From Escherichia coli (GTDB taxonomy: Bacteria; Pseudomonadota; Gammaproteobacteria; Enterobacterales; Enterobacteriaceae), in assembly GCF_009931435.1 (NCBI RefSeq), contig NZ_CP043414.1: a stretch of 64,000 bases of DNA; one strand, given 5' to 3'. This document shows, one piece after another, positions 7,166 through 58,471 of the stretch. Position numbers and translations under genes: made by a program. The stretch's first letter is position 1, and each line of letters begins with the position of its first letter. The notes under the pieces were generated by a model. That model was not told the DNA's origin and searched no databases. It saw only the letters and a list, made by a program, of their open reading frames with translations.

Positions 7166-8065
7166 TCACTCCATCATCTTCTCAATCGGCAGGACCAGGA
7201 TTGAACTGGCACCCAGCGCTTTCAGTTTTTCCATCGTTTCCCAGAACAGGGTTTCGCTACTCACCATGTGCATCGCTACGCGCTGTTGATCACCCGCCAG
7301 CGGTAGAATAGTTGGGCGTTCGGCACCTGGCAGCAGGGCGATGACTTCATCCAGGCGTTCGGTCGGTGCGTGCATCATGATGTATTTTGATTCGCGCGCC
7401 TGGATAACACCCTGAATACGGGTCAGCAGTTTGTCGATCAGTTGCTGTTTGGATTCTTCCATTTCGCCATCGCGCTGGATCAGGCAGGCTTTCGAGCGGT
7501 AGATAACTTCGACTTCGCGCAGGCCGTTAGCTTCCAGCGTGGCACCGGTGGAAACCAGATCGCAAATCGCATCCGCCAGTCCGGCACGCGGCGCAACTTC
7601 GACAGAGCCGTTCAGTAAGCAGGATTTAAAAGAGATACCTTTCTGGTCGAGATAACGCTTGAGCAGGTGAGGATAAGAGGTGGCGATACGTTTACCATTT
7701 AAGGAGAGCGGACCGTCCCAGGCTTCATCAACCGGCGTTGCCAGCGAAAGGCGGCAGCCGCCGAAATCCAGACGACGCAAGGTAAAGTAGCGCGGATCTT
7801 CACCCTGGGCGCGGCGGTTAAGCAGCTCTTCTTCCAGCACGTTTTCGCCGATAATCCCAAGGTCTACCACGCCGTCCATTACCAGACCGGGAATGTCATC
7901 GTCACGCACGCGCAGAATATCAATCGGCATGTTTTCTGCCATCGCGATCAGGCGCTGGGTGTGAAGATTGATTTTAATGCCACAGCGCGCCAGTAATTCG
8001 CGTGAGTCATCACTTAAACGGCCGGATTTCTGCATAGCTATGCGTAAACGAGTGTTGTCTGTCAT
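7166..8065 (-). CDS. hisG: ATP phosphoribosyltransferase
   Basis: 299 aa from [17 protein letters not shown] start; first structural gene of his operon. Confidence 0.95.
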
Positions 8066-8110
8066 TTTCTTATTCCTCTTTAAACCTGTCTGAACCGTTA
8101 TCAACCGCGC

Positions 8111-8148
8111 AATAAAAAAGCCCCCGGAAGGTGATCTTCCGGGGGCTT
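8111..8148 (-). terminator. his operon attenuator (leader terminator hairpin)
   Basis: Minus-strand AAAGCCCCCGGAAGATCACCTTCCGGGGGCTTTTTTATT hairpin plus U-tract located between hisL and hisG. Confidence 0.8.
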
Positions 8149-8210
8149 TCTCATGCGTTCATGCACCACTGGAAGATCTGAATGTCTTCCAGCACACATC
8201 GCCTGAAAGA

Positions 8211-8261
8211 CTAGTCAGGATGATGGTGATGATGGTGGTGTTTAAATTGAACGCGTGTCAT
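8211..8261 (-). CDS. hisL: his operon leader peptide (MTRVQFKHHHHHHHPD)
   Basis: Reverse complement of 8211-8261 translates to MTRVQFKHHHHHHHPD* with seven consecutive His codons. Confidence 0.9.
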   Translation of the reverse strand: MTRVQFKHHHHHHHPD

Positions 8262-8543
8262 AAAAGTCTCTGTGAATGTTTATTCAACTGATGTCTTTTA
8301 ACCTAAACCACTTTCACGTTAGAAAGCAAGGGCTTTTTTATATATTTTATGGCGATGGATTTGTTTAATGAATGAGCGGGAAAAGGAGGGGGCTAAGAGG
8401 ACTGTCCTCTAACTTGACAGCACCAAAAAGAGCAAAGTCTGATTTTTCGTCTCGCTGGCAATGTCTTGATCTACAAACTAATTAATAAATAGTGAATTAA
8501 CACCCATCATTGTACAATGAACTGTACAAAAGAGGAGATTTAC

Positions 8544-8795
8544 ATGCGTACAATTAGCTACAGCGAAGCGCGTCAGAATTTGTCGGCAACAATGATGAAA
8601 GCCGTTGAAGATCATGCCCCGATCCTCATTACTCGTCAGAATGGAGAGGCTTGTGTTCTGATGTCACTCGAAGAATACAACTCGCTGGAAGAGACGGCTT
8701 ATCTACTGCGTTCCCCCGCTAACGCCCGGAGATTGATGGACTCAATCGATAGCCTGAAATCAGGCAAAGGAACGGAAAAGGACATTATTGAGTGA
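8544..8795 (+). CDS. yefM: Antitoxin YefM (type II TA)
   Basis: 83 aa from [13 protein letters not shown] start; overlaps yoeB by 4 bp. Confidence 0.9.
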
Positions 8796-9046
8796 AACTA
8801 ATCTGGTCTGAGGAATCATGGGATGATTATCTGTACTGGCAGGAAACAGATAAGCGAATTGTTAAAAAGATCAATGAACTTATCAAAGATACCCGCAGAA
8901 CACCATTTGAAGGTAAGGGGAAACCAGAACCCCTGAAACATAATTTGTCAGGTTTCTGGTCCCGACGCATTACAGAGGAGCACCGTCTGGTATACGCGGT
9001 TACTGATGATTCACTGCTCATTGCAGCATGTCGTTATCATTATTGA
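8792..9046 (+). CDS. yoeB: Toxin YoeB (ribosome-dependent mRNA interferase)
   Basis: 84 aa [20 protein letters not shown], translationally coupled to yefM. Confidence 0.9.
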
Positions 9047-9128
9047 ACAGATTCATTCATAGAATGAATTGTCAGTTTTGATACGCTAGCGTAGCCTTAT
9101 AGATCTAAGGTGTATCAGGAGATAACGG

Positions 9129-9953
9129 ATGAAAAAGGTCGCAATTGTCGGGTTAGGGTGGTTAGGCATGCCGCTGGCGATGTCACTTTCAGCGCGAGGC
9201 TGGCAAGTCACCGGGAGTAAAACCACACAAGATGGTGTCGAAGCGGCCCGAATGAGTGGCATTGATAGCTATCTGCTTCGCATGGAGCCTGAGTTAGTTT
9301 GCGATTCTGACGATCTGGATGCCCTGATGGATGCCGATGCGCTGGTCATTACGCTTCCGGCACGTCGTAGCGGCCCCGGCGATGAGTTCTATTTACAAGC
9401 GGTACAAGAGTTAGTGGATAGCGCGCTGGCCCATCGTATTCCCCGCATTATTTTTACCAGCTCGACATCTGTCTATGGCGACGCGCAAGGCACGGTGAAA
9501 GAAACCACCCCGCGTAATCCGGTGACCAACAGTGGACGAGTATTAGAAGAACTCGAAGACTGGCTGCACAATTTACCCGGTACTTCGGTCGATATTCTGC
9601 GTCTTGCGGGCCTGGTCGGACCGGGACGTCATCCCGGACGCTTCTTTGCCGGAAAAACCGCCCCTGATGGTGAACATGGTGTTAATTTAGTCCATTTAGA
9701 AGATGTTATTGGCGCTATCACTCTGTTGTTACAGGCACCTAAAGGCGGACACATCTATAATATATGTGCGCCAGCTCACCCTGCGCGTAATGTTTTCTAT
9801 CCGCAGATGGCCCGTTTATTGGGGCTGGAACCTCCGCAGTTCAGAAATAGTCTGGACAGCGGCAAAGGTAAGATTATTGATGGCAGTCGGATTTGTAATG
9901 AACTGGGATTTGAATACCAGTATCCCGATCCGCTGGTAATGCCGCTGGAGTAA
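9129..9953 (+). CDS. yeeZ: NAD(P)-binding Rossmann-fold protein YeeZ (epimerase/dehydratase-like)
   Basis: 274 aa with N-terminal GxxGxxG motif (VAIVGLGWLG); conserved synteny. Confidence 0.85.
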   Translation: MKKVAIVGLGWLGMPLAMSLSARGWQVTGSKTTQDGVEAARMSGIDSYLLRMEPELVCDSDDLDALMDADALVITLPARRSGPGDEFYLQAVQELVDSALAHRIPRIIFTSSTSVYGDAQGTVKETTPRNPVTNSGRVLEELEDWLHNLPGTSVDILRLAGLVGPGRHPGRFFAGKTAPDGEHGVNLVHLEDVIGAITLLLQAPKGGHIYNICAPAHPARNVFYPQMARLLGLEPPQFRNSLDSGKGKIIDGSRICNELGFEYQYPDPLVMPLE

Positions 9954-21297: not shown

Positions 21298-22821
21298 TTG
21301 ATAATCAGCGAAATGCAACGCAAGCTTGCCACATGGGCAGTCACCGATCCGTCCCTACGGATTCAACGGCTGCTGCGTCTGATAACACAACCAGAATGGC
21401 TGGCTGAAGCGGCGCGGATCACGCTTTCATCAAAGGGGGCCCATACCCCCGGCGTTGATGGCGTGAACAAAACAATGCTACAGGCCAGACTGGCTGTTGA
21501 GCTGCAAATCCTCAGGGATGAATTACTCTCAGGCCACTACCAGCCCTTGCCCGCCAGACGGGTTTACATCCCTAAAAGCAACGACAAACTGCGACCACTG
21601 GGTATCCCCGCGTTGCGGGATCGTATTGTTCAGCGGGCCATGCTGATGGCGATGGAGCCGATATGGGAGAGTGATTTTCATACGCTCTCATATGGCTTCC
21701 GGCCTGAGCGCAGTGTCCACCACGCTATCCGCACGGTGAAATTACAGCTCACAGACTGTGGTGAAACCCGGGGACGCTGGGTGATTGAAGGCGACCTGTC
21801 CAGTTACTTCGACACCGTACATCATCGACTGCTGATGAAGGCTGTACGCCGCAGGATCAGTGACGCACGTTTCATGACTCTGCTGTGGAAAACCATCAAG
21901 GCGGGACATATCGATGTCGGTCTCTTTCGGGCGGCCAGTGAAGGTGTGCCACAGGGCGGTGTTATATCGCCGCTATTATCGAACATCATGCTGAATGAGT
22001 TCGATCAATACCTGCATGAGCGCTACCTGAGCGGGAAAGCCAGAAAAGATCGGTGGTACTGGAATAACAGTATCCAACGGGGCCGAAGTACGGCGGTCAG
22101 AGAAAACTGGCAGTGGAAACCCGCGGTGGCGTACTGCCGCTATGCCGATGATTTTGTCCTCATCGTCAAAGGCACCAAAGCACAGGCGGAAGCCATCAGG
22201 GAGGAGTGTCGGGGTGTGCTCGAAGGCAGTCTGAAACTCAGGCTGAACATGGATAAGACTAAAATCACCCATGTTAATGACGGCTTTATCTTTCTGGGGC
22301 ACAGGATCATTCGCAAACGCAGTCGTTATGGCGAGATGCGAGTGGTCTCAACGATCCCGCAGGAGAAAGCCAGAAACTTCGCCGCATCGCTGACAGCACT
22401 GTTATCAGGCAACTACAGTGAAAGCAAAGTCGATATGGCTGAACAACTCAACCGAAAACTGAAAGGCTGGGCCATGTTCTATCAGTTCGTTGATTTTAAG
22501 GCCAAAGTCTTCAGTTATATCGACCGTGTCGTGTTCTGGAAGCTGGCTCACTGGCTGGCCCGCAAATACCGTACAGGTATCGCTTCCCTGATGAGGTGGT
22601 GGTGTAAATCACCGAAACCGGGTCAGAGCAAAACGTGGGTTTTATTTGGTAAAACCAATCACGGCAAGCTCAGCGGCGAAATACTGTACCGGTTGGTGGG
22701 GCAAGGCAAGAAGCTGTTCCGCTGGCGGCTACCCGAAGGTAATCCCTATCTGAGGACGGAGACCAGAAACACGTATACATCGCGCTTTACAGAAGTGGCA
22801 ATGGCGTTCGCCAGCATTTAA
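21298..22821 (+). CDS. Group II intron-encoded reverse transcriptase/maturase
   Basis: 507 aa; RT motifs (…RRVYIPK…LRPLGIP…, YADDFVL) followed by maturase X-like domain; located inside the intron. Confidence 0.85.
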   Translation: MIISEMQRKLATWAVTDPSLRIQRLLRLITQPEWLAEAARITLSSKGAHTPGVDGVNKTMLQARLAVELQILRDELLSGHYQPLPARRVYIPKSNDKLRPLGIPALRDRIVQRAMLMAMEPIWESDFHTLSYGFRPERSVHHAIRTVKLQLTDCGETRGRWVIEGDLSSYFDTVHHRLLMKAVRRRISDARFMTLLWKTIKAGHIDVGLFRAASEGVPQGGVISPLLSNIMLNEFDQYLHERYLSGKARKDRWYWNNSIQRGRSTAVRENWQWKPAVAYCRYADDFVLIVKGTKAQAEAIREECRGVLEGSLKLRLNMDKTKITHVNDGFIFLGHRIIRKRSRYGEMRVVSTIPQEKARNFAASLTALLSGNYSESKVDMAEQLNRKLKGWAMFYQFVDFKAKVFSYIDRVVFWKLAHWLARKYRTGIASLMRWWCKSPKPGQSKTWVLFGKTNHGKLSGEILYRLVGQGKKLFRWRLPEGNPYLRTETRNTYTSRFTEVAMAFASI

Positions 22822-22826
22822 ATGGA

Positions 22827-24855: not shown

Positions 24856-25059
24856 TTACAGCAACTGGTGAGGGCTGGCATAAGTTGCCGGTGTTTCGGT
24901 AGAGTCACGTTCATCCACCACGCGGAGTGAATCACCGTTTTCAGCGACCTTGTTAATCAGTTCAGCGAGATTAACACCATCGACGTCAACGACAATGCGC
25001 CCCATGTTCAGCGCCTGCACGTTAACGCTGTCGGCTTCCAGCGTCAGGGCCAGTTTCAT
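24856..25059 (-). CDS. yeeW: YeeW-like small protein downstream of cbtA
   Basis: 67 aa ORF overlapping cbtA stop by 4 bp; conserved position in CP4-type islands. Confidence 0.6.
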   Translation of the reverse strand: MKLALTLEADSVNVQALNMGRIVVDVDGVNLAELINKVAENGDSLRVVDERDSTETPATYASPHQLL

Positions 25060-25433
25060 CGTTTCGCCTCCGGATGCTTCCCCAGGGTAATGTTATTTAC
25101 CGTTCTGTAATTGTCGCGGGTCATCAGGCCTGTTGCCCGGCGAGCCCGGAGGATATCAATACTGTTTATTAACTGAGAGCGGGGACAAGTGCTGAATCCC
25201 GGCTGGTCGGTACGCACCAGCGCGTATTTTTCCACGAGAAAATTCACCGCATCACACAGTGAAATGCCAGCTTCAATATGCTGCTCAATCACACGTTCAT
25301 CGGCGAACGGTGTGTCATTCAGTGTAAGGCCGTAATGCTGGCCCAGTAGTCGGGAGAGCAGAGTCTGCCAGATGGTGACGGGGGACGGGCAGCTCGATGC
25401 CTCCCGTACGTGTGTATCGGGTAATGTTTTCAT
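25056..25433 (-). CDS. cbtA: Cytoskeleton-binding toxin CbtA (YeeV)
   Basis: 125 aa; CbtA/YkfI/YpjF family sequence; immediately downstream of cbeA. Confidence 0.85.
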   Translation of the reverse strand: MKTLPDTHVREASSCPSPVTIWQTLLSRLLGQHYGLTLNDTPFADERVIEQHIEAGISLCDAVNFLVEKYALVRTDQPGFSTCPRSQLINSIDILRARRATGLMTRDNYRTVNNITLGKHPEAKR

Positions 25434-25522
25434 ACTGAAGGTTTTCCTGATATGCAGAGATGAAAAATGGAAAAGTGGCGTGGTGAAAGCACCAGGCCGG
25501 AGCAGAAGGTTATTCCGGTGGT

Positions 25523-25891
25523 TTACTTTTTCGTTTCGGGCGTCGGATAAACAGCCAGATAAACGTAACCACCGCTACCGAGGGTGTCAGCTTTGCAGGT
25601 CAGACCTTTCGCATACAGCGTGACGGTATGCTGATGGCGGGGATTCAGTTCACCGCTGGTGAGCATGAGTTCCAGTTGTTTCATCAGCAGCGGAAAGGCC
25701 TGGTCCAGGTGGTACGCATCTGCATCGCTGAACAGGCCTCTGATACCGGCGCGGTCGGCAAGGTAATGCAGGCGGTTACCCTCCTGCACCAGACGTGCCC
25801 CGAAACAGGGCGTCACGGTGCAGGGCAGCCCCCACCAGGGGCGGTCGTGATTGTCGTCGGGAAGCATTGTCCCGGAGAGTGCGTCTGACAC
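25523..25891 (-). CDS. cbeA: Antitoxin CbeA (YeeU)
   Basis: 122 aa; YeeU/YafW/YfjZ family. Confidence 0.85.
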   Translation of the reverse strand: MSDALSGTMLPDDNHDRPWWGLPCTVTPCFGARLVQEGNRLHYLADRAGIRGLFSDADAYHLDQAFPLLMKQLELMLTSGELNPRHQHTVTLYAKGLTCKADTLGSGGYVYLAVYPTPETKK

Positions 25892-26053
25892 GATAAAATC
25901 CTCACAGAAAATCGGTTAAGAATGGTTTAACGATGACAGGTCAGCCGGCGCGCAGACCGCCTTCGGTAAAGGTGTATTCGTTTATGAGCAGGGCCTCATC
26001 CACAGCGGCGTCTGAGCTCAGCCAGTCGTACTCGTTTTCCGGGTGACGGAACA

Positions 26054-31767: not shown

Positions 31768-34700
31768 TCAGAAGGTCACATTCAGTGTGGCCTGACCGTT
31801 ATACCCTTCAGCGCTGCTGCCGCTGACGCTGTGGGCATAACCGGCCTGAACGCCCAGGGTGATATTTTCCCGGACACGGGCTTCCAGTCCGGCCTGCAGG
31901 TCCAGTGATGTGCCATTCTGTGAGGGAGAGAACGTCATCCCGCTGCCTGCAGTGGAAGTCCCCACACGCATATCTCCCCGGGAGCTGAAGGTGCGGATAA
32001 CAGAAGGCTGTACCCACCAGTTCACCGGTAATTCACTCACACTGTGTTTTGCACTGTCACGCAGGGGGGCACGGGATGAGGTGCCTTCGCCAAAGGTCAT
32101 ATCGTTGTGGCTGCCCAGACGGAAACCGGCACGCACATGTTGTGCACTGCCATGCCCGAACTTCACATAACCGGCGTTGTCCTTACCGTCATCCAGGGAA
32201 AGTCCCTGCCAGGTATACTGCAGTTGTGGCTCCAGCATCAGGTTGTCAGTGATACTGAAGGGCAGACCGGTTTCCAGTGAGCCCAGCCAGCCCCAGCCCC
32301 GGGCGCGGAAGTCGTTATTGTCCGATGACGCTTTCATGCTGTGGCGGGTTCCCTGTGCCACAATGTCAGCCCACAGGCCGGAGGACGTGTGTGTCAGATT
32401 CAGGTATCCGCCCAGGCTGCCGGCATCATCCCGGACCGTGCCGGCACGGGAGCCGTCATCATCCTTAACATCAACGGAAGAATGGCCAGCAGCACCATAT
32501 ACCCCCGCGGTCACAGACATACCGGCAACCTCTGTTCTCATCAGGTCACCCTCCAGACGGACGAATCCATAGCTGCCGCTGCTTTCCGGCGTGGCCCCAC
32601 GGGCAATACCGCCATTGTTATCGTGACCGAGATGACCGCCCTGAATGCTGAGACGGACGCTGTTGTTTTCACCATTTACACCGGTCTGATGGCTGCGGGA
32701 GCCTGCCACAATCCGGTCATAGTCCATTGCCTGTGTCAGCATGGAGGCATACAGGGGGACTTCTGCACGATAAGCATTTTCACTGCGCAGATACCAGCTC
32801 TCACCACTGTCCCGGTTGAGGGAGTAGTTAAAGGCACCGGCCTGCAGCCTGTTCCCCTGGACAAAGGCCCCTTCCTCCGTGGTGGCACCGTTAATGGCTT
32901 CCACCACCTGAATACCCTTACCGCTGGTCGCCAGCCCCGACGCACTGTTGCCGGCGTTCACCAGGTTCAGGATGGTTTTTCCGGTTGCCCTGCCGCCGTC
33001 AATGACCAGTCTGTCAGCATTGTTCTGTGCCATATCCGGGCGTACACGCAGGCTGATGGTGCCATTCTGTCCGTTCAGGTTTTTCACTTTCAGGGTTGCC
33101 GGTACGAACTTCCCTGTGCGGGTGGAGGTGAAATGAATCTGTCCGGCATGGCTGAGGTCATCCACCACCGACTGCACCGTGGCGTTATCGGGGATATTCC
33201 AGGTGGCACCGGAGGCGAGAGTGACATTCGTGGGGTCAATGGCACCGTTCAGCACAGTGCTGCCGGTCAGCTTCAGGGCTGTACCGCGCTGAGCAATGAC
33301 ATCCGTGGTGACGGTACTGTCGTTCAGCGTCAGCGTGCCTTCATTCAGGTTGACGGCTTTCTGGGTGAGTGTGGTGTTGCTGACAGTGAGTGTGCCACTT
33401 CCTGATTTTTCCACGCTGCCGTTACCGGTGAGAGAGCCTCCCTGCAGGAGTGCATCGCCTTCACGGATGGTCAGGGTATCGTTGTTCACCGTCTTCCCGG
33501 AAAGGGTAAGTATGGCGCCGTTATTCAGCGTGGTGGTGCCCGCCAGTGTGCCGCCCCTGGCGGTGAACAGTCCGCCATTTACCGTGGTATCCGTGGCCGT
33601 ATCACCGGCGTTCAGCGTGAATGAACTGCCTTTTTCCAGCATCAGGGCATCCGCCTGACCGCCTCCGATACTGAATGCCTTTCCGTCGCTCCGGGTACCA
33701 CTGACAGCGGCACCGGAATCGGCCAGCAGTACACCGCCATTTCCCATGGATACGGTGGTGGCGGTACCACCGTTGCGGACATCCAGCGTTCCGCCATCAT
33801 CCACGCGGGTATTAGTGGCTGTGTGTCCGGTCAGCACATCCAGGCGTCCGCCATTTTCCAGTACGACATTATCAGCTTTACCCTCCACAACCGAGAATGC
33901 TCCAAGGCGGTTTATGCCGGTAACGGTTGCAGCCGTACTGGTAACCAGTGCGCCGCCCTGCTTCAGGGTGACATTCGTGGCTGTACCACCGGCGTCCACC
34001 TGCAGTCTGCCCTTCTGATTAACGGTGGTATTCCCGGCCACACCCCCGTTTTTGACAATCTGCCAGCCGTCACTGTTCACAACAGTGTCAGACGCTGTAC
34101 CGCCGTTGTGCACATACTGGTATCCCCCATTCAGCGTGGTATCCAGTGCGTGACCATGTACAGTCTGGTCGCCGCCGGCATAAACCACAGTGGTATTTGC
34201 CGTTCCTTCAGTTCTCACAATCTGGCGACCGTTTTTATTGATGGTTGTGCGTACGGCATCCCCGCGAACAAACTGCCCGGTATCACCGTTTTCTGCATCC
34301 GGTCCCCCTTCCGCCCCGGTATTAACAACGGTATCCGTTGCCACTGTACCGGGCTTGACGACCTGCCAGCCCTTATCATTAATGACGGTTCCTGTGGCTA
34401 TCGCCCCCTCATGCATCCACTGTTCGCCACCATTCAGCGTGGTGTTCACTGCCCGTCCCTGAAGGCTCTGTCCGCCTCCGGCACTGATAACCGTGTCTGA
34501 GACACTTCCACCGGGGTTCACTCTCTGAAGACCACCACTGGTGACAGTCGTTTTGTTGGCTGTTCCGCCATCCTGTACCCATTGCCCGCCGGTATTGGCC
34601 TCGTTATCCGGCCCATACTCCAGCCCGGTACTGATGGTCATTCCGTTGGTCGTACCGAAGACAATCTGGTTGTCATGATTTTCCAGTGTTCCGCCGTTCA

Positions 34701-34887
34701 CGGTTTCACCTGCCTGTACAATACTGTCAGCAGCCAGGGCCGGGACTGACGTGACAGCAGCAAGAGACAGAGCAACCGCCACACCGGCGCCTTTTCCCCG
34801 TGAGCGGGCCAGTTCGGAGGCCACCACCAGGGTGCCCGTAATGTGATTCCATACCAGCCTGTAGCTGGTGTTCAGATGTCGTTTCAT
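31768..34887 (-). CDS. flu: Antigen 43 autotransporter adhesin (self-associating autotransporter)
   Basis: 1039 aa from MKRHLNTSYRLVWNHITGTLVVASELA extended signal peptide; repetitive beta-helix passenger; C-terminal beta-barrel ending …ATLNVTF. Confidence 0.9.
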   Translation of the reverse strand: MKRHLNTSYRLVWNHITGTLVVASELARSRGKGAGVAVALSLAAVTSVPALAADSIVQAGETVNGGTLENHDNQIVFGTTNGMTISTGLEYGPDNEANTGGQWVQDGGTANKTTVTSGGLQRVNPGGSVSDTVISAGGGQSLQGRAVNTTLNGGEQWMHEGAIATGTVINDKGWQVVKPGTVATDTVVNTGAEGGPDAENGDTGQFVRGDAVRTTINKNGRQIVRTEGTANTTVVYAGGDQTVHGHALDTTLNGGYQYVHNGGTASDTVVNSDGWQIVKNGGVAGNTTVNQKGRLQVDAGGTATNVTLKQGGALVTSTAATVTGINRLGAFSVVEGKADNVVLENGGRLDVLTGHTATNTRVDDGGTLDVRNGGTATTVSMGNGGVLLADSGAAVSGTRSDGKAFSIGGGQADALMLEKGSSFTLNAGDTATDTTVNGGLFTARGGTLAGTTTLNNGAILTLSGKTVNNDTLTIREGDALLQGGSLTGNGSVEKSGSGTLTVSNTTLTQKAVNLNEGTLTLNDSTVTTDVIAQRGTALKLTGSTVLNGAIDPTNVTLASGATWNIPDNATVQSVVDDLSHAGQIHFTSTRTGKFVPATLKVKNLNGQNGTISLRVRPDMAQNNADRLVIDGGRATGKTILNLVNAGNSASGLATSGKGIQVVEAINGATTEEGAFVQGNRLQAGAFNYSLNRDSGESWYLRSENAYRAEVPLYASMLTQAMDYDRIVAGSRSHQTGVNGENNSVRLSIQGGHLGHDNNGGIARGATPESSGSYGFVRLEGDLMRTEVAGMSVTAGVYGAAGHSSVDVKDDDGSRAGTVRDDAGSLGGYLNLTHTSSGLWADIVAQGTRHSMKASSDNNDFRARGWGWLGSLETGLPFSITDNLMLEPQLQYTWQGLSLDDGKDNAGYVKFGHGSAQHVRAGFRLGSHNDMTFGEGTSSRAPLRDSAKHSVSELPVNWWVQPSVIRTFSSRGDMRVGTSTAGSGMTFSPSQNGTSLDLQAGLEARVRENITLGVQAGYAHSVSGSSAEGYNGQATLNVTF

Positions 34888-35069
34888 CAGCTTTTCCTTA
34901 GATTGAGGGTGAATAAAAAAGCCGGTACCCACAAACGTGGATACCGGCAGGTAAAGGGTTACAGTGCCGGAGGTCCGGCTGTGGGAGTTTCTGAATTGTG
35001 GTTCTGTTGTTCCCTGAATGTCTTTCTGTACGTATCTGTGCATGTTACTGACAAAGGTTATTATTAGCT

Positions 35070-54247: not shown

Positions 54248-54876
54248 ATGTGGTTTCACTTTCTGCAATTAAGGTCGGCTTTGAATATCTCCTCTGCTTT
54301 ACGTCAGGTTGTTCACGGCACTCGCTGGCACGCTAAACGCAAGAGCTACAAAGTGTTGTTCTGGCGCGAGATAACCCCGCTTGCTGTTCCTATCTTCATG
54401 GAGAATACCTGTGTCCTGTTGATGGGGGTTCTGAGCACTTTTCTGGTCAGCTGGCTGGGAAAAGATGCGATGGCCGGCGTGGGATTGGCGGACAGCTTCA
54501 ATATGGTCATTATGGCTTTTTTTGCTGCTATCGATCTTGGTACTACTGTCGTTGTGGCATTTAGTCTCGGTAAGCGGGATCGACGACGAGCGAGGGTGGC
54601 GACGCGGCAGTCATTGGTGATCATGACGTTGTTTGCCGTACTGTTGGCAACGCTTATTCATCATTTTGGCGAGCAAATTATTGATTTCGTCGCGGGTGAT
54701 GCCACGACAGAAGTTAAAGCACTGGCGTTGACTTATCTGGAGCTGACGGTACTCAGTTATCCAGCAGCTGCCATCACTCTAATTGGTAGCGGGGCACTTC
54801 GTGGTGCAGGGAATACGAAAATACCGCTACTGATTAACGGTAGCCTGAATATTCTTAATATTATTATTAGCGGCAT
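54248..54876 (+). pseudogene. yeeO: MATE efflux transporter YeeO, 5' portion (disrupted by IS1 insertion)
   Basis: Frame from MWFHFLQLRSAL… to …NILNIIISG then IS1 inverted repeat. Confidence 0.85.
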
Positions 54877-55313
54877 GGTAATGACTCCAACTTACTGATA
54901 GTGTTTTATGTTCAGATAATGCCCGATGACTTTGTCATGCAGCTCCACCGATTTTGAGAACGACAGTAACTTCCGTCCCAGCCTTGCCAGATGTTGTCTC
55001 AGATTCAGATTATGTCGCTCAATGCGCTGAGTGTAACGCTTGCTGATAACGTGCAGCTTTCCCTTCAGGCGTGATTCATACAGCGGCCAGCCATCCGTCA
55101 TCCATACCACGACCTCAAAGGCCGACAGCAGGCTCAGAAGACGCTCCAGTGTGGCCAGAGTGCGTTCACCGAAAACGTGCGCCACAACTGTCCTCCGTAT
55201 CCTGTCATACGCGTAAAACAGCCAGCGCTGACGTGATTTAGCACCGACGTAGCCCCACTGTTCGTCCATTTCAGCGCAGACAATCACATCACTGCCCGGT
55301 TGTATGCGCGAGG

Positions 55314-57576
<2,263 letters not shown>

Positions 57577-57603
57577 CTAAATCAGTAAGTTGGCAGCATT
57601 ACC

Positions 57604-58471
57604 TAGCGGCATATTGATTTACGGCCTTTTCTCCTGGCCGGGACTGGGATTTGTCGGGGCTGGGTTGGGTTTAACCATTTCTCGTTATATTGGCGCAGTT
57701 GCAATTTTGTGGGTGCTGGCGATTGGTTTTAATCCTGCGCTAAGGATTTCGTTAAAGAGCTATTTTAAACCGCTGAATTTTAGCATTATCTGGGAAGTCA
57801 TGGGGATTGGTATTCCAGCGAGTGTCGAATCAGTGTTATTTACCAGTGGTCGGTTATTAACCCAAATGTTCGTTGCCGGGATGGGGACCAGTGTTATTGC
57901 CGGAAATTTTATCGCGTTTTCAATTGCGGCTCTTATCAACTTACCCGGAAGTGCGCTCGGCTCTGCTTCTACGATCATTACAGGCCGAAGGTTGGGGGTA
58001 GGGCAGATAGCGCAAGCAGAGATTCAGTTGCGGCATGTGTTCTGGCTGTCCACTCTTGGATTAACGGCCATCGCCTGGCTAACGGCTCCCTTTGCCGGGC
58101 TTATGGCATCGTTTTACACCCAGGATCCACAGGTTAAACATGTCGTTGTGATTCTGATTTGGCTAAATGCTTTATTTATGCCTATTTGGTCCGCCTCATG
58201 GGTGCTACCCGCTGGATTTAAAGGTGCTCGTGATGCCCGTTACGCCATGTGGGTTTCGATGTTGAGCATGTGGGGTTGTCGGGTTGTAGTCGGTTATGTG
58301 CTGGGAATCATGCTTGGCTGGGGTGTGGTTGGTGTCTGGATGGGAATGTTTGCCGACTGGGCTGTGCGGGCCGTGCTGTTTTACTGGCGAATGGTTACTG
58401 GACGTTGGCTATGGAAATACCCTCGACCCGAGCCGCAAAAGTGTGAAAAAAAGCCAGTTGTGTCGGAATAA
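57604..58471 (+). pseudogene. yeeO: MATE efflux transporter YeeO, 3' portion
   Basis: Frame resumes …SGILIYGLFSWPGLGF… right after the IS1 right end. Confidence 0.85.

Follow-up and report, generated by a model that had tools for sequence, protein, structure and literature searches.

The his leader and attenuator and the yefM-yoeB toxin-antitoxin pair of an Escherichia coli chromosome: two divergent units in the arrangement of K-12

In the 64,000-nucleotide stretch of Escherichia coli DNA analyzed here (the window), the leader and attenuator of the histidine operon lie next to the yefM-yoeB toxin-antitoxin (TA) locus, which raises the question whether these loci form one regulatory arrangement or are neighbors by position only. 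The first-pass annotation, which covered positions 8111-9046, described the his leader as directly followed by the TA locus and called this the canonical arrangement. Our analysis leaves us almost certain that the region contains two independent, well-characterized E. coli units that stand back to back, as they do in K-12, and have no functional linkage.

The gene order in the window (wzzB, the his operon on the minus strand, hisL, yefM-yoeB, yeeZ, and yeeY onward) is that of the E. coli chromosome with the K-12 map reversed. On one side of the region lies the first structural gene of the his operon, hisG (7166-8065, minus strand), an ORF of 299 aa matching the Pfam domains HisG (PF01634, E = 8e-50) and HisG_C; on the other side lies yeeZ (9129-9953), which has an Epimerase-family match. 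The spacers between hisL and yefM (282 bp) and between yoeB and yeeZ (82 bp) both equal the K-12 values, as tabulated in PMC5120126. Alignment of the segment 8066-9128 with K-12 MG1655 covered 1063 of 1063 columns and yielded 29 substitutions and no indels (97.3% identity), while the HisL, YefM and YoeB proteins were each 100% identical to their K-12 counterparts. The interval 8070-8353, which spans the whole leader, the attenuator and the his promoter, contains no substitutions at all.

A megablast comparison with 5426 complete E. coli genomes identified a 100% identical copy of the region in strain CFSAN061769, for which RefSeq gives the same four features with the same strands and coordinates, including hisG annotated at the same position of the collinear record. 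The first 50 kb of the window are 99.87% identical to the chromosome of this strain. The first-pass annotation had proposed alignment with the K-12 hisL-yefM region as its own check and had offered the region as a control of the coordinate frame. Both hold: the alignment returned the same proteins and spacings without indels, and the frame is sound to the single base, position 8111 being the last U of the terminator tract (minus strand) and position 9046 the last base of the yoeB stop codon, that is, exactly the ends of the annotated span.

The hisL gene occupies positions 8211-8261 of the minus strand, where the window carries the reverse complement of ATGACACGCGTTCAATTTAAACACCACCATCATCACCATCATCCTGACTAG. 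It comprises 16 codons, is translated into MTRVQFKHHHHHHHPD followed by a stop, as in K-12, and is annotated in the collinear record; its seven consecutive His codons are found at 8220-8240. The His operon leader RNA (Rfam RF00514) was detected at 8112-8235 on the minus strand with 131.6 bits against a gathering score of 49 (E = 3e-23) and over the complete model (1-126 of 126), which bears out the seven-His leader peptide and the attenuator hairpin originally read from the letters. The terminator of the attenuator, helix E:F (8117-8150, minus strand), has a G+C-rich stem of 14 bp and a loop of 5 nt and is followed by the tract UUUUUUAUU, which extends to 8111. Folded alone, this hairpin has an energy of -27.3 kcal/mol, and it aligns with the terminator helix of the Rfam His_leader model.

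Several other Rfam matches in 8109-8209 (RcsR1, Thr_leader, Phe_leader, Spot_42 and several microRNA families) were rejected, as they score below the respective gathering thresholds and all fall on the terminator hairpin. A sub-threshold His_leader match on the plus strand (31.9 bits) was also set aside; it is an echo of the true match, since the terminator hairpin is nearly palindromic. As a separate observation, hisL of O157:H7 86-24 (2646-2696 of the segment retrieved from this strain) reads MTRVQFKQHHHHHHPD: its first His codon is CAG (Gln), which leaves a run of six His, whereas the six other strains sampled have the seven-His run.

The leader RNA as a whole, taken from 8300 to 8105 on the minus strand, is predicted to fold at -73.5 kcal/mol, compared with -43.3 ± 4.0 kcal/mol for shuffled sequences (z = -7.55), and the structure of minimum free energy contains the helices A:B, C:D and E:F, segment A of the first helix falling inside the His codons. 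We also folded the antiterminator state, for which the footprint of a ribosome on the His codons was masked and only the transcript preceding segment F was used. In this fold helix B:C (8183-8212, -12.1 kcal/mol) and helix D:E (8131-8180, -16.7 kcal/mol) appear, and the D:E pairing sequesters segment E. In these computed structures, the terminator and antiterminator pairings are mutually exclusive, which fits the classical model of his attenuation.

According to this model, transcription would begin at about 8292, and hisL would be translated while the leader is still being transcribed. With plentiful His-tRNA, the ribosome would clear the His codons, the helices A:B, C:D and E:F would form, and transcription would terminate at the U-tract before hisG. 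With scarce charged tRNA-His, the ribosome would stall on the His codons and mask segment A, allowing B:C and D:E to form; segment E would then be sequestered and RNA polymerase would read through into hisGDCBHAFI. Read-through upon limitation of charged tRNA-His is established for K-12 and Salmonella. That the strain of the window attenuates in the same manner is taken from the literature and may be expected of a leader that is base for base the K-12 one. On the his side, the window differs from K-12 by one substitution four bases before the hisG start codon (8069) and by two more well upstream of the promoter (8354 and 8381); a functional change is not expected from these substitutions.

The his promoter was placed at 8292-8329 on the minus strand, with the -35 hexamer TTGCTT (8324-8329), a spacer of 18 bp, the -10 hexamer TAGGTT (8300-8305), an A/T-rich discriminator and the transcription start site (TSS) at 8292. 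The two hexamers are those which we take to be the promoter elements, from the sequence and from general knowledge of the his promoter. This promoter is activated by ppGpp. The interval 8262-8399 is nearly invariant in eight strains.

The position of the start site was derived from a further, more recent proposal on his attenuation: with +1 at 8292, the three rDnaA-box coordinates published in PMC10989985 (+46-56, +126-134 and +187-195) land on matches to the DnaA box with two mismatches. According to this study from 2023, binding of DnaA to the leader RNA promotes attenuation, and one may ask whether DnaA bound at the "rDnaA boxes" in the manner of a protein-dependent riboswitch, rather than ribosome stalling alone, is the main driver. 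We consider this rather doubtful, though it deserves some weight. The same study reported that dnaA mutants were derepressed 4- to 37-fold, an effect that depended on the hisL stem-loop region (PMC10989985), and all four published box positions (8237-8247, 8159-8167 and 8098-8106) are unchanged in the window. However, each of the boxes has two mismatches to the consensus of 9 nt, and by the same criterion the leader has three more such DnaA sites within its first 40 nt, which makes the motif evidence weak. Moreover, binding of DnaA to the RNA comes from one study, and the ribosome-stalling model already explains the seven-His run as well as the alternative helices. We therefore keep to the stalling model; the DnaA layer, if correct, would supplement classical attenuation without replacing it.

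On the plus strand lies a type II TA operon, in which yefM (8544-8795, 83 aa) encodes the antitoxin and autorepressor, and yoeB (8792-9046, 84 aa) encodes the toxin, a ribosome-dependent mRNA interferase. The two small genes are translationally coupled, with the antitoxin gene first and the toxin gene second, yoeB starting with GTG and overlapping the yefM stop codon by 4 nt (GTGA). YefM matches the Pfam family PhdYeFM_antitox (PF02604) over residues 1-73 with 96.8 bits against a cutoff of 29.8 (E = 6e-28), and YoeB matches YoeB_toxin (PF06769, RelE superfamily) over residues 5-84 with 146.3 bits against a cutoff of 27 (E = 2.8e-43). Among solved structures, the best matches are 2a6q_A for YefM (E = 1.8e-49) and 2a6q_E together with the ribosome complexes 4v8x and 6oxa for YoeB (E = 1.2e-56). 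Identification of the genes as the chromosomal YefM-YoeB pair is thus supported by the protein families, by the top structure 2A6Q and by complete identity with the K-12 proteins.

The residues by which YoeB contacts and cleaves the mRNA in the ribosomal A site have been described, Glu46 being the general base, His83 the general acid, and Arg65 or Arg59 serving the transition state (PMC3814384). Glu46, Arg59, Arg65, His83 and Tyr84 are all present in the translated ORF. Upon degradation of YefM (by Lon), free YoeB would enter the A site and cleave mRNA with Glu46 as the base and His83 as the acid. Toxicity, neutralization by the antitoxin and Lon lability have been shown in the literature for the identical K-12 proteins (PMC1802561, PMC7167474), and the biochemistry of the pair in the window would follow from this identity.

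The promoter and operator of yefM-yoeB (8490-8537, plus strand) were located from the literature numbering and not from a consensus scan. The operator footprinted with DNase I by Kedzierska et al. (PMC1802561) consists of an L palindrome and an S repeat, separated by 12 bp centre to centre, and covers the -10 box. A palindrome search identified both in the window at the same distance: the L palindrome TCATTGTACAATGA at 8507-8520, identical to the footprinted operator, and the S repeat TGTACA at 8523-8528. In the same study the yefM ATG is numbered +21 and a second, rejected upstream ATG is numbered -7 (PMC1802561); since both numbers fit only there, +1 is position 8524. The -10 box is TACAAT (8513-8518) and the Shine-Dalgarno sequence GAGGAG (8532-8537) lies 6 nt from the yefM ATG, whereas the -35 hexamer TAGTGA (8490-8495) is a candidate that we infer ourselves. 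YefM, and more avidly the YefM2-YoeB complex, would bind the TGTACA palindromes of L and S over the -10 box and so repress the operon. The TGTACA cores, TACAAT and the Shine-Dalgarno sequence are invariant in eight E. coli alleles, unlike the variable stretches 8411-8465 and 8494-8506.

Two ORFs of this part of the region were considered and rejected. An ORF of 92 aa starting from the ATG at 8517 is not the beginning of yefM, because this ATG precedes the mapped start of transcription (8524) and the YefM protein begins at +21. An ORF of 37 aa (8372-8485) is not regarded as a gene: in K-12 it has a stop at codon 14, and it occupies the most variable stretch of the region. A consensus promoter and terminator scan of 8000-9200 was uninformative: the promoters of his and yefM and the terminator of the attenuator all escaped it, and its two calls, a promoter-like and a terminator-like site, fall within yoeB on the minus strand, a yield no higher than that from shuffled sequences. 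The missed calls can be explained by the thresholds of the scan, since TAGGTT agrees with the consensus at three of six positions and the extension of the terminator stem consumes the U-tract.

The yefM promoter of the window differs from that of K-12 at position 8494 (G vs T) in the candidate -35 hexamer, at two positions of the spacer (8502 and 8504), and at 8541 (-3 of the ATG) between the Shine-Dalgarno sequence and the start codon; the level of expression could differ slightly. These differences might also be thought to cause strain-specific expression of yefM-yoeB that is tied to the activity of the his promoter, strongly activated by ppGpp and about 230 bp away, through supercoiling between the divergent promoters; amino-acid starvation would thereby act in cis on the expression of the TA pair. 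We regard this as very improbable.

The strands of the two units decide how their adjacency is to be read. The minus strand carries the his leader and attenuator, the plus strand carries yefM-yoeB, and the two units diverge from a shared intergenic region of 282 bp with two separate promoters, their start sites (8292 and 8524) being 232 bp apart. Early in vitro studies had already detected a divergent transcript in the region upstream of his (cited in PMC1802561). Since the strands are opposite, the attenuator cannot act in cis on yefM-yoeB; its target is hisG, whose start (8065) follows the U-tract (ending at 8111) on the minus strand. Hence the statement that the leader is directly followed by the TA locus is correct for the positions but fails for the order of transcription: the TA pair is neither downstream of the attenuator nor controlled by it.

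It could still be argued that the units are functionally coupled, either by the attenuator controlling the TA pair or by interaction of the divergent promoters (through supercoiling or ppGpp), in such a way that yefM-yoeB responds to starvation for histidine or amino acids. Physical adjacency, with start sites this close to each other, speaks for such coupling, as does the response of the his promoter to ppGpp. Apart from the opposite strands, which deprive the attenuator of any effect in cis, the genomes (about 22% of those of E. coli) that have the invariant his control region but no cassette speak against it, and, as the title of a bioRxiv preprint (10.1101/021162) has it, regulation of yefM/yoeB is reportedly independent of ppGpp, which we count against coupling. 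Furthermore, yefM-yoeB has its own mapped promoter and is autorepressed (PMC1802561). Taken together, these observations make functional coupling highly unlikely, and we retain the reading of two independent units, which none of our observations contradicts.

The yefM-yoeB genes belong to a cassette (8400-9046, about 650 bp) that is lodged between the his promoter region and yeeZ; its position there makes the two units neighbors, and no functional linkage is involved. The cassette is present in 4217 of the 5426 complete E. coli genomes (78%), always on the chromosome and with a median of one copy, while about 1200 genomes, including O157:H7, match in the flanks only. Accordingly, the arrangement may be called canonical with respect to K-12 and to more than three quarters of the complete genomes, but it is not universal. 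The cassette-free genomes keep the same his control region, and the his side is therefore independent of the cassette.

In place of 8400-9046, the cassette-free strain O157:H7 86-24 carries about 190 bp of unrelated sequence that includes a REP-like motif; on either side it is identical to the window, in the his control region as far as 8399 and in the yeeZ-proximal spacer starting at about 9050. The alignment with this strain breaks after ...GCTAAGAG, which places the left junction at 8399/8400, and the right junction lies just past the yoeB stop codon. It has been described before that TA loci can occupy intergenic sites where other strains have REP sequences (PMC7167474). The left junction is straddled by an inverted repeat, AGAGGAC/GTCCTCT (8396-8410). 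The K-12 version of this repeat has perfect arms of 11 bp (GCTAAGAGGAC / GTCCTCTTAGC); part of the left arm falls in sequence common to the cassette-free strains.

At the 5' non-coding end of the cassette (8411-8506), 17 of 107 positions differ from K-12 (16%), compared with 0-3% in the flanks, and in this stretch Nissle 1917 and DS566-2 are closer to the window than K-12 is. This suggests two or more allele families for the 5' end of the cassette. Degradation is common among chromosomal TA loci, and the same divergence might be taken to indicate that the copy in the window is a decayed or inactive remnant. We find this barely credible, as both ORFs are intact, the proteins are those shown experimentally to be active in K-12, and the eight substitutions that distinguish yefM and yoeB from the K-12 genes are all synonymous; the operator, the -10 box, the Shine-Dalgarno sequence and the translational overlap of 4 nt are intact as well.

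The spacer between yoeB and yeeZ contains an A/T-rich hairpin on the plus strand (9051-9071), ATTCATTC-ATA-GAATGAAT, followed by TGTCAGTTTTG. The segment 9035-9128 folds at -22 kcal/mol, a weak signal (z = -2.37), and the consensus scan of 8000-9200 made no terminator call at this hairpin. We rejected it as the terminator of the cassette: it is A/T-rich and weak and is also present in O157:H7 86-24. Because it is common to cassette-free strains, the hairpin belongs to the upstream region of yeeZ and lies outside the cassette. Read-through from yoeB into yeeZ is plausible and has also been suggested by others (PMC5120126).

Several mobile elements were observed elsewhere in the window. The yeeO gene is broken by an insert of 2727 bp (54868-57612), which is absent from the otherwise collinear CFSAN061769 and is flanked by a direct repeat of 9 bp, TAGCGGCAT. 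The insert has IS1-like ends (inverted repeats 54877-54899 and 57581-57603) and an InsB-like ORF (54892-55395, minus strand); nested in it is an IS21-family element with IstA-like (55661-56683) and IstB-like (56680-57462) ORFs and inverted repeats at 55575-55602 and 57501-57528. The IS1 and IS21 family names are presumptive, given from recognition of the ORFs. By annotation transfer from the 99.87%-identical CFSAN061769, the segment 19900-23400 contains an IS629-like (IS3 family) transposase gene split by a group II intron with ltrA (approximately 21314-22822), and the segment 24700-48000, between tmaR and cobU, is a CP4-44-like island. The latter features CbtA/CbeA (25057-25892), YeeS/YeeT, an antirestriction protein, Ag43 (31769-34888), a YfjI-family protein and several IS remnants (IS110, IS30, ISL3 and IS4).

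In summary, the region is a textbook his attenuator beside a well-studied TA pair and is already known in every respect; chance cannot account for its features. Its value is that of a calibration point for the E. coli identity, the orientation and the coordinate frame of the window; what the present analysis adds is that the divergence of the two units is stated outright and that the TA cassette is shown to be variably present, being found in about 78% of complete genomes. Both units have a direct counterpart in K-12. The his side corresponds to the hisL-hisG leader of K-12 MG1655 (b2018; RF00514), with the same peptide, helices, U-tract and distance to hisG, and the TA side corresponds to K-12 yefM-yoeB (b2017/b4539; PDB 2A6Q and 4V8X), with the same proteins, GTGA overlap, L and S palindromes, -10 box and flanking spacings.
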